Origin: a virus
Taxonomy: Duplodnaviria > Caudoviricetes
Direction: 5' to 3' (one strand)
Length of the DNA: 64,000 nt
IMG/VR virus record: IMGVR_UViG_3300009037_000004
Span: 1-64,000 of that record
The position numbers were made by a program, and so were the translations under genes. Numbering within the stretch: the first letter of the stretch is position 1; every line of letters begins with the position of its first letter. Shown piece after piece: positions 6,786-50,115 of this stretch. The notes under the pieces were generated by a model, which worked only from the letters and a program-made list of their open reading frames with translations, was not told where the DNA came from and made no database searches.

Positions 6786-7705
6786 GCCATCGCCTCCAGC
6801 CTGCGATTCACATCGTGGAGCTGGTCATTGACGATCTCGATCGCCTTCTCCAGTTTGGCGTGCTCGTGGGAGATTTTCGTGAGGGCGATGAAGCGATCGA
6901 CGACTGGATGGTTGGTGTTGGGAATCCTCTGGCCAGCCAGCTTGGCGATCGGGGTGAAGGACAAGCTGGCTTCCTTCGTCATCCCACTCGCCTTCAGATG
7001 CCCGGAGACCATCAGCATGGCCTCCTTCCACATCTGGGTCGGGGCGTAGCCATGCCAGGCCTTTCCGATGTCCTCCAGAGCCGTCCCGGCCAGAACTTCC
7101 CGGCGAACGGACTCGCAGAGGTCGTGGCGGACGTCGTGGAGGAGCACGCCGGAGGAAGCGTACTTGCTCCTCAGGTCGTCCCGGACACCTTCCAGACGTA
7201 CGCGAAGGTCTGCGATCTCCTCCCCCGGGTTCGCCCGGATGGCGTGATCGAGCTGGGCGGTCTTTTCCATCTCCGACTTGATGCCGAATGCCTCGGCCAG
7301 GATCGAATCGGAGGCCATCGCGGTCTTGTAGTGACCGATGGGCGGCTGGTATCCGGCGGTCTTGACCTGCCTGGGCGGGGGGGAGGAACCATCGTTGAGA
7401 TCTTGGAGGACGGCGGCTGGGTTGGCTGGCCCACCATCGAAGGTCACGTTCCTGACCTCACCGCCCTTCTCGAACTCCATGAGGTAAGCAGCGGTGTTGG
7501 CGAACTCGCACACGCGCTTCACCTGCTCGGGAGCCAGCCGGGCTTCCTTCACGATCTCCACCACCGCCTCGTTCAACGGCGTACGCTGTTCTGCGTAGAG
7601 AGCCGCTGCCCTCTTCCCCATCACCTCGAGCTGTTCTGGATCGACGTTCTTAGCGGCCTGCTGCTGGGCAAGACCGAGAGGAATGGCACCGGCCTGATCG
7701 CTCAT
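6782..7705 (-). CDS. Putative virion/head protein, first gene of the head operon
   Basis: Start MSDQAG with AAAGGTG RBS; K-x-A motifs KTAG, KTAM, KTAQ, KEAS and KLAG. Confidence 0.6.
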   Translation of the reverse strand: MSDQAGAIPLGLAQQQAAKNVDPEQLEVMGKRAAALYAEQRTPLNEAVVEIVKEARLAPEQVKRVCEFANTAAYLMEFEKGGEVRNVTFDGGPANPAAVLQDLNDGSSPPPRQVKTAGYQPPIGHYKTAMASDSILAEAFGIKSEMEKTAQLDHAIRANPGEEIADLRVRLEGVRDDLRSKYASSGVLLHDVRHDLCESVRREVLAGTALEDIGKAWHGYAPTQMWKEAMLMVSGHLKASGMTKEASLSFTPIAKLAGQRIPNTNHPVVDRFIALTKISHEHAKLEKAIEIVNDQLHDVNRRLEAMA

Positions 7706-7722
7706 CGTGTCACCTTTGGTCA

Positions 7723-7752
7723 ATCATAGGTTCGTGATTCCCGTTCTGTCAA
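7723..7752 (-). promoter_or_regulatory. Sigma70-like promoter of the head operon, TTGACA-N18-TATGAT
   Basis: Near-consensus hexamers read directly on the minus strand upstream of the ATG at 7705. Confidence 0.75.
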
Positions 7753-7763
7753 TCACGGCGGGC

Positions 7764-7792
7764 TTGTACACCGTGTGCGCGGTCTCTAGTAT
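7764..7792 (+). promoter_or_regulatory. Divergent sigma70-like promoter, TTGTAC-N17-TAGTAT
   Basis: Lies upstream of the plus-strand gene at 7827. Confidence 0.45.
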
Positions 7793-7826
7793 AGGTAGCA
7801 TGCACCCCAGGGAGATGGGAAGTCCA

Positions 7827-8321
7827 ATGGAAGATGAGTTCAGGATCAGGAAACTGGAAGCACGACTAGCGAATGCGGAGAAGCAGATTCAGTTCCTCCT
7901 CCACATCAACGGTCTTGACCTCTCCGCCATGCGAGATGCGCCGGATGAGGAGCTTCTGAAGTACTACCGGGACGCTGTGACCCTCCTAGGACTACGAAAG
8001 GAGCAACTCGCGCCGGACGTGATATCGGTCTGGGGCGAGCTCTTCCTCCAGCTCTCCGAATACGAGATGGTGCGCCTCCAGGAGCTGGTTGGGTGTGATC
8101 ATACCTGGGAGCCGTTCTATCTCCTAGTCGTCCGGATGATGACCTCCGTCCGCCAGCGGAAGAACTTCGCCAAGACTCCCGTCCTCAAGAACCTCTATGC
8201 GCTCCTTGATCGTGGCCGGAAGAACATCCGCGACTCCGCGATGATCATGATCCAAAATCACCCCCAGAATGTCCCCCAGGCTGCAAAAGCCCTCCTAAAT
8301 GATCGTTCCATTGCTGTTTAG
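7827..8321 (+). CDS. Hypothetical helical protein
   Basis: Start MEDEFRIRK after a GGAG-containing leader; protein-like composition. Confidence 0.6.
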   Translation: MEDEFRIRKLEARLANAEKQIQFLLHINGLDLSAMRDAPDEELLKYYRDAVTLLGLRKEQLAPDVISVWGELFLQLSEYEMVRLQELVGCDHTWEPFYLLVVRMMTSVRQRKNFAKTPVLKNLYALLDRGRKNIRDSAMIMIQNHPQNVPQAAKALLNDRSIAV

Positions 8322-11559: not shown

Positions 11560-11789
11560 GAAATCGCCTCGAGTCTGAAGACGACGGGGTCCACGGGTAT
11601 AAGAACCTTGACCGCCGACACCAAGCCTTGAGTCGGATGGTCAACTGCCGGCAACAGCATCACCGTGCCCGGTCTCTCAACCCCAAAACTCAAGTGTGGG
11701 ACCTCGGGCCGTAATGTAGATGCCGGCAACACCCGAGGGATCCACACTTGAGCGAGGGAAGTCGTGATGCCGGCGAAAGCCGGCCTCAC
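11556..11789 (-). CDS. Hypothetical protein
   Basis: Fills the gap exactly: GTG directly follows the upstream TAA, and its stop overlaps the terL ATG. Confidence 0.45.
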   Translation of the reverse strand: MRPAFAGITTSLAQVWIPRVLPASTLRPEVPHLSFGVERPGTVMLLPAVDHPTQGLVSAVKVLIPVDPVVFRLEAIS

Positions 11790-23248: not shown

Positions 23249-23278
23249 GAAACGATCATCTCGGATTGGGTATAAGGA
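23249..23278 (+). promoter_or_regulatory. Putative phage-RNAP promoter, GAAACGATCATC-N8-GGTATAAG
   Basis: Shares the upstream AAACG(G)ATCATC element and the core with the copy at 48141-48169. Confidence 0.6.
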
Positions 23279-23325: not shown

Positions 23326-23460
23326 ATGGGACCTGAGGACCAAGAAGAGTTCGATCACATTGATGGAGATTCCCTCTCCGACTTCCAGGAGTTGGTCGAT
23401 GACCAACTTGAGGGAGGGGATTCGGATGAGGGTGGATCTGACAGCGGGGACGAGGAGTGA
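23326..23460 (+). CDS. 44-aa highly acidic peptide
   Basis: AAAGGAG RBS; MGPEDQEEFDHIDGDSLSDFQELVDDQLEGGDSDEGGSDSGDEE has 19 D/E and no K/R. Confidence 0.6.
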   Translation: MGPEDQEEFDHIDGDSLSDFQELVDDQLEGGDSDEGGSDSGDEE

Positions 23461-23593: not shown

Positions 23594-24070
23594 ATGGAAG
23601 ACGGATGCTTCGTCATGAACCCCGATCATAGCTGTGCCTTTTGCGGAGAACCGTTCGGCATAGAAGATGAACGGGAGTTCGTGCTTGTTGAATCGGGGCA
23701 AATGACACCAATGCGGAAAGACCCGCATTGCCTTCGATTCAGCGCCGACCATTCCAGTGAGTACGACGCCAAACTCAGGCGCCACGCCGTACTGGAGTTC
23801 TACCACGCGGACTGTTTCATTGATCGATTTCTACGGTCCGAGTGGGGCGCCAATTCTCCAACCTCATGCGATCTGTGTGGGGTGGACTTCCGAAGGGTGC
23901 GATGGGCGTTTCGTGTGAGGTTGGGACGACAGGATTTCGAGACGGGGATTTTCGTGCCTCTTGAAGATCCCCGGAACGAGACAATCCTTTGCCCAGAGTG
24001 CATCACGGAGGGCTTTGGAGAGGGAGACACGGAGGAAGGTGAACTACTCTTGGGCTCTGTGAGGAGGTAA
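23594..24070 (+). CDS. Zn-finger protein
   Basis: AGGAGG RBS; CAFC, HADC, CDLC and CPEC motifs. Confidence 0.7.
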   Translation: MEDGCFVMNPDHSCAFCGEPFGIEDEREFVLVESGQMTPMRKDPHCLRFSADHSSEYDAKLRRHAVLEFYHADCFIDRFLRSEWGANSPTSCDLCGVDFRRVRWAFRVRLGRQDFETGIFVPLEDPRNETILCPECITEGFGEGDTEEGELLLGSVRR

Positions 24071-24073
24071 CCG

Positions 24074-24505
24074 ATGACAAAGCGGGGAACGGCCTTTGTT
24101 GCGGACCCCGCTCTAGGGATCTGCACACGAGACGATCTCGACCGGCTCTGCCACGTAGAGCTGGACGAGGAAGTCAACACGTATCTGGCGAGATTCTCCA
24201 ACTCGGGGTTGCAGCTAGTGGCCGTGAACCCGGATGGAGAGCGGCACGCCAGTCGCGACCGGCTGTGCTTCTGGTACCCAAAGCTCCGAGCTCTGGAGCT
24301 GAAGGGACGACTCGTCAACCCAGAGATGGGAAGTGAGGAGGCGAAGTTCCGGGAGCACTACCGATGGCTCAAGGATTACCGGGTGGCGGCCTACTCCTGC
24401 ATCAAGAAGCAGGAGGCACAGCTAGAGAAGGTGACGAGGGAGGAGGCGGAAGCTGTCGCTCGGCAACAAGAGTTCGAATGGGCTCAGATGAAGAAAGGTT
24501 GCTAA
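24074..24505 (+). CDS. Hypothetical protein
   Basis: GAGGAGG RBS; convergent with the portal gene. Confidence 0.65.
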   Translation: MTKRGTAFVADPALGICTRDDLDRLCHVELDEEVNTYLARFSNSGLQLVAVNPDGERHASRDRLCFWYPKLRALELKGRLVNPEMGSEEAKFREHYRWLKDYRVAAYSCIKKQEAQLEKVTREEAEAVARQQEFEWAQMKKGC

Positions 24506-31081: not shown

Positions 31082-31091
31082 GGTATAAGAA
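31082..31091 (+). promoter_or_regulatory. GGTATAAGAA motif, putative phage-RNAP promoter
   Basis: Intergenic, about 40 nt upstream of the gene at 31131. Confidence 0.6.
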
Positions 31092-47364: not shown

Positions 47365-47923
47365 GAAACTCACGAAGGAAGACCTGGATGGTATGAGCCG
47401 AGTCCAACTCCGCCGCGCGGCCATGGAAGTGTTGGGCATGGGCAACAAGGAAGCGACCGAGATGAACAGCGCGGACCTCAAGGCCAAGATCCTGGAGGCC
47501 CAGGAAGGCGGGGGAAAGAAGAAGGGTAAGGCCGCGCCGCCCCCGGAGGAGCCGAAGAAGGGCAGGGGCAAGCCCGCCCCGGAACCCGAGCCGGAAGAAG
47601 AACCCGAGCCGGAGCCCGAAGAGGAGGCTCCGCCCCCGAAGGGCAAGGTCGCTGCGTCGTCCGAAACCAGGACGCTGACTGAGATCTTGAAGGTCGTCCA
47701 TGCGGTCGGGAAGGCCGTGGACGAGCTCGCCCAGACCGTGGCGGAACGCCTGGACACGCAGGACGAGCACCTGGTCGAGATCGAGCGGAAACTCTTCCAC
47801 CAGCTCGGACTCACCGAGAACATCTTCAAGGGTGTGAGCGAGCCGGACGAGTTCGAGCCCAGGATCGAGGCGCTGGAGGACGAGTGGAAGAAGCAGGCGG
47901 AGGGCGAGGAGGGAAACGACTAG
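47357..47923 (+). CDS. Rho-N/HeH-like, PE-linker, coiled-coil protein ending at a slippery site
   Basis: AAGGA RBS; LDGMSRVQLRRAA...SADLKAKIL, PEPEPEEEPEPEPEEE; ends GAG GGA AAC GAC TAG. Confidence 0.7.
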   Translation: MSEKLTKEDLDGMSRVQLRRAAMEVLGMGNKEATEMNSADLKAKILEAQEGGGKKKGKAAPPPEEPKKGRGKPAPEPEPEEEPEPEPEEEAPPPKGKVAASSETRTLTEILKVVHAVGKAVDELAQTVAERLDTQDEHLVEIERKLFHQLGLTENIFKGVSEPDEFEPRIEALEDEWKKQAEGEEGND

Positions 47924-48114
47924 CAGGGGGCTCTACCCTGGGTCCCCGCCCAGCTCGTCCGGATGAGACCGTGAACGTGACCGAAGCCTACCTGGCCGAC
48001 CTGACCTTGGACAGCCTCCGGCTGCTAGCTGTCCAGCTCGTTGTGGACATCGACCCGGCCGCCATCGAGGATCGCGAGGAGCTACTCCAGCTCCTCCGAT
48101 CCAACTCCCTCTAG
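47911..48114 (+). other. Putative -1 programmed frameshift (G GGA AAC plus hairpin) and -1 frame extension
   Basis: In-phase X XXY YYZ heptamer, a stem-loop at 47923-47949, and a -1 frame open to 48114. Confidence 0.65.
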
Positions 48115-48134
48115 CCCCTTCGGGGGCTTTTCTT
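48113..48134 (+). terminator. Intrinsic terminator ending the replication block
   Basis: AGCCCC-TTCG-GGGGCT followed by TTTCTT. Confidence 0.85.
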
Positions 48135-48140
48135 AACCTG

Positions 48141-48169
48141 CAAACGGATCATCCATGCCGGTATAAGAA
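48141..48169 (+). promoter_or_regulatory. Putative phage-RNAP promoter, CAAACGGATCATC-N6-GGTATAAGAA
   Basis: Lies directly after a terminator and matches the copy at 23249-23278. Confidence 0.6.
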
Positions 48170-48280
48170 ACGTAGAGGAAAGAACGCAAGTTCCCCCTCC
48201 TTGAGCTACCCCGATAAGTAGGGGATTGCTGGTGCCAAGCCAGTGATGGCTCGCAGGGCCCCTGCCTGCGGAGGTCACCG

Positions 48281-48586
48281 ATGCTCAAGATCGATCTCTC
48301 GGTGACCCCGAGCAACCCGCTGTACGCGGGCCTTGGGGTCACGGAGGTCGGTGGGCGGGCGAACCTCCCCAACGCGACCAGTGCCGAGGTGATCAACACC
48401 ATTGGCAAGGTCGTGAAGGGGATGGTTGACGCACTGCCCGTGGGCGAGCGTGACGAGGTGGTTCTGACCGGGCCCGCGCCGGTCCAGATCTACCTCGTTG
48501 CGTTTCACGGGGTGGTCCACTGCTTCCGGTCCGTCCGCTACCAGGATGGCCGGGGTGGTGACTGCCTCGTGTCGCAACACGGGTAG
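48281..48586 (+). CDS. Csx3/Crn3-like putative cyclic-oligoadenylate ring nuclease
   Basis: GGAGG RBS; EVVLTGPAPVQIYLVAFHGVVH...YQDGRGG..LVSQH resembles the Csx3 pattern VV.SG..P.W...AH...H....YDPR.G.VVV.SH; 101 aa. Confidence 0.6.
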   Translation: MLKIDLSVTPSNPLYAGLGVTEVGGRANLPNATSAEVINTIGKVVKGMVDALPVGERDEVVLTGPAPVQIYLVAFHGVVHCFRSVRYQDGRGGDCLVSQHG

Positions 48587-48604
48587 CGCCTCCCACCGAC
48601 CTCG

Positions 48605-48636
48605 ACCCAGGCGGCTTGCGACGCCTGGGTTTCTTT
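48605..48636 (+). terminator. Intrinsic terminator
   Basis: ACCCAGGCG/CGCCTGGGT stem followed by TTCTTT. Confidence 0.8.
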
Positions 48637-48645
48637 AGCTAGTAA

Positions 48646-49161
48646 TCACTTGGCGACGTAGGCTACGGCCACGACTGCGACCGTGGTAACAACCACCCCC
48701 ACGACCGCCCCGAAGGTCCAGGAGCGGTACCACGCCCGCTCCTTTGACAGCTCAGTCTGAAGCTGGGTGACCTGCTTCTTGTACGACTCCCGCTGGCTGG
48801 TCCGGAGATCGAGGTCGGCCCGCAAGGACTGGGTGGTGAACTTCACCTCACTCGCCAGCTTCTCCCCGGCCGAGGTCGTCTCCATCCACCGGATGCGCCG
48901 AAGGGCGGTGATGCGAAGGCCGAGCTCCAAGACCCGGTCCTTGTCCAGCAGGATGCCCTCCCAGGGGGCTGGGACACCCAGCTTGAGGGCTACTGAGTCC
49001 TTGGGGTTCAGCCTGGGTACCAGGGCATCCTCCCCAGGCCCCGGACAGGCGTAGGAGGGCTCCTTCTTGGGGTCGGAGTAGTCTTGGGCCAGGCACTGGG
49101 GATTCTGCGCTCTGAGAGGCGCTGGGAGCGCCAGGAGGGCAACTACGAGCAACCACCTCAT
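48646..49161 (-). CDS. Exported protein with coiled coil and C-terminal TM (spanin-like lysis candidate)
   Basis: Signal peptide, coiled coil and hydrophobic C-terminus. Confidence 0.5.
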   Translation of the reverse strand: MRWLLVVALLALPAPLRAQNPQCLAQDYSDPKKEPSYACPGPGEDALVPRLNPKDSVALKLGVPAPWEGILLDKDRVLELGLRITALRRIRWMETTSAGEKLASEVKFTTQSLRADLDLRTSQRESYKKQVTQLQTELSKERAWYRSWTFGAVVGVVVTTVAVVAVAYVAK

Positions 49162-49905: not shown

Positions 49906-50115
49906 CTACTCGTCCTTCCAGATGATCTTCGTCTGCCCGTTGTGGCAGTGCACCTTCTCCAGATGATCCATGCTGCTGTAGAAGACCACGCTAGGAGTGG
50001 AGGAGGTCCAACGAAGAGCTACCGTCCCGTCAGTGAAGACACAGCCCTCGGCTACGATCCCCACACCTGAGACTCCTGAAACATCCGAGAGGCGGTGCAG
50101 GTGGAAGCGTCGCAT
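49906..50115 (-). CDS. Small phage hypothetical protein
   Basis: DVSGVSG.G.VAEG..F.DG.VALRW...H.H.G.T pattern, recalled from small phage proteins. Confidence 0.6.
   Translation of the reverse strand: MRRFHLHRLSDVSGVSGVGIVAEGCVFTDGTVALRWTSSTPSVVFYSSMDHLEKVHCHNGQTKIIWKDE

Follow-up and report, generated by a model that had tools for sequence, protein, structure and literature searches.

A likely viral ring nuclease of the Csx3/Crn3 superfamily coupled to a CRISPR-repeat mimic in an uncultivated phage

Introduction

Can a phage gene that lies outside any CRISPR locus encode a ring nuclease of the Csx3/Crn3 kind, and would such a protein serve against type III CRISPR immunity? The question is raised by a 64,000-nt stretch of viral DNA (Duplodnaviria; Caudoviricetes), positions 1 to 64,000 of the IMG/VR record IMGVR_UViG_3300009037_000004, which we call the window, and within it by a gene for a protein of 101 amino acids (aa). 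A first-pass annotation had proposed that this protein is a Csx3/Crn3-like ring nuclease, or a sponge for cyclic oligoadenylates (cOA), captured by the phage and expressed early as an anti-type III protein. Csx3 of Archaeoglobus fulgidus (AfCsx3) is a Mn-dependent nuclease of type III CRISPR loci that opens the ring of cyclic tetra-adenylate (cA4) and assembles into head-to-tail tetramers. To our knowledge, the characterised viral ring nucleases are of two kinds only, AcrIII-1 and AcrIII-2. A survey published in 2025, which covered 28,114 phage genomes and used Crn3 models, reported AcrIII-1, Csx16 and Csx20 and no Crn3 (PMC12409355), and our literature searches found no description of a viral Crn3.

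Here we report an in silico analysis of this gene, its family and its surroundings. The description that fits the protein best is that of a new branch of the Csx3/Crn3 superfamily, mainly viral, in which the Crn3 catalytic set looks intact. Homology, predicted fold and mapped residues support the proposed anti-type III function, as do a type III-A CRISPR-repeat core in the leader of the gene and anti-signalling genes in its neighbourhood. Thus, the locus likely encodes a viral ring nuclease coupled to a repeat mimic, that is, a two-part candidate anti-type III device.

Results

Sequence relationship to Csx3/Crn3

The only NCBIfam match of the window protein was TIGR02579 (Crn3/Csx3), with 14.3 bits and an E-value of 0.038. 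We then considered its relatives. A word-indexed search returned 22 homologues (50-100% identity, E <= 2e-18); 16 of these match TIGR02579, the best at E 7e-4. A family profile compared with 1.84 billion cluster representatives found 101 proteins at E <= 1e-3, including 47 at E <= 1e-10. These representatives stand for clusters at 50% identity and are mostly viral or from Patescibacteria. TIGR02579 matches 18 of them at E <= 0.01, with intermediates reaching 1.1e-11, 1.7e-9 and 7.7e-7. When the wide family profile was compared with the sequences in the PDB using HMMER, the five AfCsx3 entries came out on top (E 0.0076), and hhalign aligned the close clade with the AfCsx3 core segment (P 1.8e-4, 30% identity over 46 columns). 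Automatic naming assigns the nearest ESM Atlas clusters, which are mostly viral (Uroviricota), to the Csx3 family. A tblastn search of 50,697 GenBank phage records found no homologue, so the family is known solely from uncultivated material; a search of PHROGs gave only noise.

The HMMER profile-PDB and hhalign alignments contain the same residue pairs. As the AfCsx3 chains in the PDB are numbered native + 6, we give the pairs in native numbers, window protein before AfCsx3:

T63-G64, opposite S44-G45
H76, opposite H57
V79 / H80, opposite H60 / H61
D89, opposite D69
R91, opposite R71
H100, opposite H80

In AfCsx3, the "H60 face" consists of the absolutely conserved H57, H60 and H80, of which H57 and H60 are the probable Mn ligands; D69 and R71 are essential and lie on the cA4-binding "D69 face"; and S44, G45, R46 and I49 contact cA4 (PMC7371418). 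Both alignments bear out what the first-pass annotation had suggested by eye, namely that the equivalents of H57, D69, R71 and H80 are kept (H76, D89, R91 and H100) and that the equivalent of H60 is shifted by one residue, H80 aligning with H61. The canonical H-x-x-H-G spacing is kept in several family members, for example P0047, P0098 and P0122. Among the cA4 contacts, T63-G64 is retained opposite S44-G45 and V68 opposite I49.

Thirteen positions are invariant in the 22 homologues: G24, G25, R26, R57, T63, G64, P65, H76, H80, Y87, D89, G90 and H100. Position 91 is R or K within this clade. About half of the 101 representatives lack the histidines and still keep the GGR, LTG and Y-x-DGR motifs. 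Thus, the putative ligand face would be universal in the family and the His face optional, as is expected of a mixture of binders and nucleases. The window protein carries the motifs of both faces.

The family also includes tandem two-domain fusions (P0059, P0060, P0070, P0126 and the gene at L043:1966-2607), which have lost all three histidines and kept GGR, LTG and DGR. These fusions sit in a cellular context (AspRS, RadA-like), and at L043:2678-2983 a 101-aa gene follows one of them. P0099 and P0104 are tandem forms in which the histidines are retained, and a 44-kb viral contig (L028) has two adjacent family copies (7511-7843 and 7995-8288). The contigs of the intermediates P0099, P0122 and P0024 are short and gave no gene context, and the widest family alignment was too diverse to be used in locus scans.

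Predicted fold

The structure of the window protein was predicted by AlphaFold2 from the 22-sequence alignment, with a mean per-residue confidence (pLDDT) of 96.1 and a predicted TM-score (pTM) of 0.85. A Foldseek comparison with Csx3 had been suggested as a check of the original proposal; in the PDB search, AfCsx3 chains take ranks 1-8 (E 0.09-0.16, probability 0.89-0.96). VIA-align superposed the model on AfCsx3 with Z 5.9-6.2 and a root-mean-square deviation of 2.0-2.2 A over 71 of ~100 residues, at 20-22% identity. Most of the other best structural matches are cyclic-oligonucleotide sensor domains of the SAVED and CARF kinds. They include the SAVED lobes of Cap5 (Z 7.4), Cap4 and CHAT, which match the single-domain model at Z 5.4-7.4, the CARF domains of Cad1, Cat1, Csm6 and Can2, and the viral SAVED ring nuclease 9r8s (Z 5.4-5.5). 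A fold search of BFVD gave nothing at E <= 0.001. A Z-score near 6 would not settle the matter by itself. Because of this thematic enrichment of sensor domains, together with the sequence link to Csx3, we regard the predicted membership of the Csx3/CARF/SAVED superfamily as solid.

We also modelled the tandem fusion P0060 (pLDDT 88.7). It matches whole SAVED domains at Z 9.9 (8tl0, 187 residues) to 6.7, the top 13 rows all being SAVED, with a Foldseek E-value of 2.3e-4 to SAVED and Z 7.3 to 9r8s. That the fusion matches complete SAVED domains argues for a CARF/SAVED-type dimer and supports a model in which dimers of the single-domain proteins would take the same two-lobe arrangement.

A CRISPR-repeat core in the leader of the gene

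The gene was described at the outset as a unit of its own, made up of a terminator, the GGTATAAG motif, a leader, the ORF (open reading frame) and a second terminator, with the four protein motifs listed below. We found all of these elements again, the downstream terminator being weak. The cassette measures ~480 nt and its leader ~110 nt. In order along the window, it contains:

48113-48134, + strand: terminator-like hairpin (48113-48128) followed by a T run, closing the upstream replication/recombination operon (terminator scan; 6-bp stem with 5 GC pairs, tail TTTCTT)
48160-48167, + strand: GGTATAAG promoter-like (-10-like) motif, one of 4 copies in the window, all on the + strand
48200-48280, + strand: structured 5' leader with a P1 helix, three hairpins and GGAGG (minimum free energy (MFE) folds, z -2.5 to -3.2)
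48209-48232, + strand: solitary CRISPR-repeat unit, whose 21-nt core is the 3' part of a 37-nt type III-A repeat
48270-48274, + strand: GGAGG (read from the sequence)
48281-48586, + strand: 101-aa Csx3/Crn3-superfamily ORF, candidate viral ring nuclease, with an ATG start and the motifs VVLTGPAP, FHGVVH, YQDGR and VSQH
48604-48640, + strand: 10-bp GC-rich hairpin (48604-48631) with a T-rich run after it (-20.5 kcal/mol; weak, z -1.8; no call in the consensus terminator scan), probably a terminator common to two convergent units

The solitary repeat unit consists of a hairpin, CCCC-GATAAGTA-GGGG, at 48209-48224, followed by the handle-like ATTGCTGG at 48225-48232. Its 21-mer, CCCCGATNAGTAGGGGATTGC (48209-48229), also lies upstream of homologues in two phage-like contigs (L030 and L050). 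A scan of JGI metagenome contigs for this 21-mer found 21 loci. Many of these are CRISPR arrays, in which the 21-mer is repeated at intervals of 73-78 bp (~74), up to 26 times. The array repeat is 37 nt long and ends in ...CCCCGATGAGTAGGGGATTGCTAC; its core is identical to that of the phage except for one loop base, which varies among copies.

Four independent arrays are flanked by Cas10/Csm1, which scores 512, 500, 503 and 338 bits against a cut-off of 170. The genes beside the arrays further include Csm2, Csm3, Csm4, Csm5 and Cas6, and two array loci encode putative effectors: a Card1/Can2-like CARF nuclease in L062, and a protein with a Cap4-type nuclease domain and EAD7 in L053. Taken together, these Cas10/Csm, Cas6 and effector genes assign the repeat to a type III-A system with cOA-dependent effectors. 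The arrays beside type III-A operons sit in metagenome contigs of similar G+C content. At L071:2020-3456 and L053:2945-4273 we also observed that a protein of the RAMP superfamily, probably Csm5, carries an S1 RNA-binding domain as a C-terminal fusion.

The repeat core occurs once in the window and once in the whole 137-kb record, 0.00 copies being expected by chance. It was not found in five larger cellular carriers of the family or in 401 genomes of one phylum. We aligned four leaders (those of the window, L030, L050 and L055) with three repeats, and the 21-nt core was the sole invariant block. The two hairpins that follow the core keep their positions in the four leaders, with entirely different sequences. 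An invariant core amid diverged hairpins argues for selection on the core and not for a recombination scar.

One of these leaders stands before another gene. On L055 (544-960), a 1-kb contig from the sample series of the phage, the core, two hairpins and GGAGG precede an ORF that resembles neither Csx3 nor any known family. It is possible that the leader is a portable module. In five other loci (L054, L058, L063, L065 and L068) a single repeat core is flanked by runs of short CTCTAGCTCT-like repeats. Belonging to neither an array nor a Csx3 cassette, these copies could represent a further element, mobile or leader-like, with the Cas6 hairpin in it. Downstream of the homologues in L048 and L050, a hairpin and the block CACCTGGGAACAGAACGG (L048:4304-4393 and L050:983-1072) are conserved despite very different G+C contents of the contigs. 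This block was not seen in the window.

The repeat hairpin is the usual determinant of Cas6 recognition. Solitary repeat units of viruses can act as RNA anti-CRISPRs (Racrs) that bind Cas6 and Cas7, and they are significantly enriched beside acr genes (PMC10651486). Racrs were tested for types I-C, I-E, I-F and V-A, and in that study we found no tested type III example (PMC10651486).

The leader folds over the start of the gene

The whole leader folds at -50.5 kcal/mol (z -3.2, MFE). In this fold, the P1 helix pairs CUUGAGC (48200-48206) with GCUCAAG (48283-48289), which spans codons 1-3 of the ORF, and closes a junction of three hairpins over the translation start, GGAGG included. We compared the MFE folds of the four leader sequences (z -2.5 to -2.7). 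The three-hairpin architecture is found with different stem sequences in L030, L050 and L055. The same kind of closing helix, made of unrelated sequences, is present in L030; L050 has a weaker, 4-bp closing helix and a hairpin over the ribosome-binding site and start codon; and in L055 the closing helix was not seen. A scan of 47900-48800 with Rfam gave nothing near the gathering score.

A promoter-like motif shared with the replication module

The window has four copies of the motif GGTATAAG, all of them on the + strand; the expected number is 0.23, and no shuffled sequence gave four. In the form GGTATAAG(A/G)A, the copies lie at 11596, 23269, 31082 and 48160 (+), and the copy at 31082 heads the entire + strand replication module. 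Considering the number and strand of the copies and the position of this one, we read the motif as a putative phage promoter element, so that the gene would be co-regulated with the replication genes and yet form its own unit. The motif is also present in L030, 92 nt ahead of the homologue there. We infer the early expression that was originally proposed only from this promoter-like motif, common to the gene and the replication module.

Two other copies of the motif have surroundings of their own. After the copy at 23269 comes a small group of + strand ORFs set among the - strand structural genes, namely a very acidic 44-aa ORF (23326-23460), a Cys-rich 158-aa ORF (23594-24070) and a 143-aa ORF (24074-24505), which may be further counter-defence cargo. 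No obvious ORF follows the copy at 11596, only a small hairpin, so this copy may give rise to a small RNA.

Source record and anti-signalling neighbours

The source virus is a linear IMG/VR contig of 137,433 bp, estimated to be ~75% complete. Upstream, on the + strand, lie genes for a primase, PolA, a RecA/UvsX-like recombinase, a Cas4-like PD-(D/E)XK exonuclease and RusA; downstream, on the - strand, are genes for proteins of tail-fibre size. Thus, the Csx3-like gene forms the end of the replication/recombination module of the phage, at the junction with the structural genes. It is not in or beside a type III CRISPR-Cas locus, as judged from this neighbourhood and not from a search of the record for cas genes or CRISPR arrays. 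TIGR02579 had no match at E <= 1 in the whole 137-kb record, and no second copy of the family was found in the phage. The G+C content of the gene (0.65) falls within that of its surroundings (0.56-0.67), so its composition shows no sign of recent capture.

The late-gene run downstream contains another candidate anti-defence gene:

49906-50115, - strand: 69-aa gene of the Acb5 family (precomputed PF26761 in three contigs of the phage; ESM Atlas)

In the ESM Atlas, 30/30 feature matches of the 69-aa protein are Acb5, with structural TM-scores of 0.92-0.95. The gene is 1.3 kb from the Csx3-like gene. Acb5 cleaves 3'3'-cyclic GMP-AMP and blocks CBASS, the cyclic-oligonucleotide-based anti-phage signalling system (bioRxiv 10.1101/2025.07.12.664507). 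We observed comparable neighbours in related phages. The homologue in L030 has a gene of the Acb2/Tad1-hairpin kind 1.4 kb away, and in L041, a 90-kb phage contig, a single run of small genes contains the homologue together with Lockin (1.1 kb away) and Acb2/Tad1 (2.9 kb away). The homologue of L045, a temperate phage, follows the repressor region, and the phage-like contexts L034/L035, L048 and L050 contain only unannotated small genes. Known anti-signalling genes thus occur within 3 kb in 3 of ~6 independent phage contexts. No member of the Acb2/Tad1 family was found in the record of the source phage itself.

Cellular relatives

A genome scan identified 21 loci in cellular metagenome-assembled genomes (MAGs), mostly of Patescibacteria and 0.6-1.1 Mb in size, in which the gene is chromosomal. 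In eleven cellular loci it lies 1-4.5 kb from a gene for a TrmB-family regulator, the two forming a divergent pair in Saccharibacteria, and in L029 it follows ParAB. A maximum-likelihood tree sets the clade of the window protein apart (97/92 support); every member whose origin is known is phage-like. Intermingled viral and cellular sequences make up the sister clade.

These results bear on the proposal that the gene had been captured from a CRISPR locus, which they do not support as such. The family is a deep branch of its own, mostly of viruses and Patescibacteria, and no Csx3-like gene or other family member was found in the 21 array- or repeat-bearing loci. In cells, the family is not CRISPR-associated.

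Discussion

The model that we propose has a protein part and an RNA part. The protein would form a two-fold dimer and bind a cyclic oligoadenylate, probably cA4, on the face made up of the GGR loop, the LTG-x-x-P/V loop and the Y-x-D-G-R strand. The His face (H76, H80 and H100) would come from a second dimer in a head-to-tail stack. Cleavage of the ligand would follow the metal-dependent mechanism of Crn3 and would remove the signal for host CARF/SAVED effectors. In the leader, the Cas6-recognition hairpin and handle would make the mRNA a ligand or substrate of host Cas6, so that the leader may serve as a Racr-like RNA decoy or as a processing site. Overall, we consider it moderately probable that the protein is a cOA ring nuclease, probably for cA4, used against type III-A immunity.

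Several observations weigh against this proposal. The score of the window protein for TIGR02579 is below the curated cut-off of 55.4 bits, as is that of the best intermediates (44.8 bits), and by curated criteria its sequence is not that of a Crn3. A Pfam search at E <= 10 found no match for it, and a profile built from the 22 close homologues alone found none among the PDB sequences. The second histidine is offset by one, and AfCsx3 R46, a cA4 contact, is replaced by P65, for which the invariant R26 might substitute. The structural Z-scores of ~6 (<8) are in the range that the tool calls common, with SAVED domains scoring as well as Csx3. As for the leader, only the 3' 24 of the 37 repeat nt are present in the phage (the 5' 13 nt vary even between arrays), and the handle agrees at 6/8 bases in this phage, against 8/8 in L030. 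When 79 array spacers were compared with the whole phage and 16 related phage loci, none matched: there were only chance matches of 13-15 nt, and the best, 22/25 nt, had an E-value of 0.1. Finally, among the 18 cellular genomes that carry the sister clade, Cas10 is absent in 17 and the SMODS CD-NTase (cGAS/DncV-like nucleotidyltransferase) in all 18, both counts being subject to the incompleteness of MAGs. Carriers of this kind imply that the family also has a role outside cOA defence, or that their copies act on foreign signals.

Most of the remaining probability falls to three other readings of the protein. It may bind the signal and not cleave it, as a sponge or a very slow enzyme. The family-wide ligand-face motifs (GGR, LTG and Y-x-DGR) and the many members without histidines would suit such a role; Csx15 is reported to be a good cA4 sponge and a slow nuclease (PMC13148439), and Lockin and Acb2/Tad1, the neighbours in related phages, are sponges. 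We think a sponge unlikely here, since the invariance of H76, H80 and H100 in the window clade is hard to explain without catalysis or metal binding, and type III systems have been argued to make too much signal for sponging to be effective (PMC13148439). A little less likely again is that the protein cleaves or binds the nucleotide of another immune system, such as cyclic tri-adenylate (cA3) of CBASS, a cyclic dinucleotide or some other signal, instead of type III cA4. The best structural scores are indeed to SAVED domains of CBASS (Cap5 at Z 7.4, and Cap4), the nearest known anti-defence neighbours target CBASS or Thoeris, P65 stands in place of the cA4 contact R46, and by its title a 2026 preprint presents Csx15 as bridging CRISPR and CBASS signals. 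Against this stand the leader, which has a type III-A repeat core and no CBASS-related element; the sole relatives at the sequence level, Crn3 proteins reported to be cA4-specific; and the matching type III-A locus L062, whose Card1/Can2-like effector belongs to a family that is cA4-activated according to the PDB titles of Can2 and Card1.

We give about the same low weight to a housekeeping role in RNA or nucleotide metabolism, for instance the trimming of RNA 3' ends, with the phage copy serving phage RNA metabolism. Csx3 was first described as an RNA deadenylase (PMC7371418), the gene closes the replication/recombination module of the phage, and the sister clade is chromosomal in small Patescibacteria without Cas10 or CD-NTase, often near a TrmB-type regulator and in one locus beside ParAB. 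Such a role would not account for the separate phage-like clade or for the anti-signalling genes within 3 kb in three of ~6 independent phage contexts, and a CRISPR-repeat leader has no place in it. A further explanation concerns the leader and is very improbable, namely that the core is a functionless relic of a recombination event that captured the gene beside a CRISPR array. Cellular csx3 genes do lie in type III loci (PMC7371418), the phage has only the 3' two-thirds of the repeat, and its handle is imperfect. However, four leaders share the core unchanged although their flanks and downstream stems have fully diverged, one of these leaders is in a far more AT-rich contig and one precedes a different ORF, and no Csx3-like gene was found in the 21 array- or repeat-bearing loci.

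Returning to the candidate ring nuclease and its repeat mimic, the fold of the leader suggests one further step, which we regard as rather doubtful. Cleavage by host Cas6 at the 3' base of the repeat hairpin would remove the 5' strand of P1 and free the start region of the ORF, while Cas6 would stay on the decoy hairpin. Synthesis of the ring nuclease would then be confined to cells with a matching type III-A system, and the cassette would be a Cas6-sensing, self-arming anti-type III device in which translation is activated by Cas6. If so, the L055 leader before a different ORF would be the mark of a portable sensor module.

The components resemble known systems in part. The protein shares with AfCsx3 (PDB 3WZG, 3WZH, 3WZI, 6VJG and 6YUD; TIGR02579, PF09620) its length of ~100 aa, its predicted fold and the order of its motifs. 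In contrast to that of AfCsx3, its N-terminal part is longer and contains an invariant NPLY...GGR motif of its own, and its family is encoded by phages and Patescibacteria and not in type III loci. Like AcrIII-1 (DUF1874) and AcrIII-2 (viral SAVED, PDB 9R8S), it would be a virus-encoded destroyer of cA4, and like AcrIII-2 it is predicted to belong to the CARF/SAVED-like structural world and probably to act head-to-tail. It comes from a different sequence family than either, and its fold differs from that of AcrIII-1; AcrIII-2 is a fused two-lobe SAVED protein of ~235 aa, whereas the window protein is a single 101-aa lobe that must dimerise. The cassette recalls Racrs and racr-acr operons such as RacrIC1-AcrIC5 (PMC10651486) in having one phage repeat hairpin beside a candidate anti-CRISPR gene, here in the same transcript. 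Unlike those repeats, this one is of type III-A and lies in a 5' leader, within a larger conserved fold that pairs with the ORF start. Acb5, Acb2/Tad1 and Lockin are likewise small phage proteins; they remove immune second messengers by cleaving or sequestering them, and in three phage lineages they are encoded near a member of the family. They share neither fold nor family with the window protein, and the signals that they are known to target belong to CBASS and Thoeris, not to type III systems.

If active, the protein would be a third structural solution of viruses against type III signalling. The coupling to a repeat mimic names the likely target system without knowledge of the host, and the cassette offers a directly testable pair, an RNA decoy or sensor and a signal-destroying enzyme. 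Nuclease, sponge and SAVED-like sensor may be the steps of one natural series, as the histidine-free and tandem-fused members of the family suggest, and such a series bears on the origin of SAVED domains.

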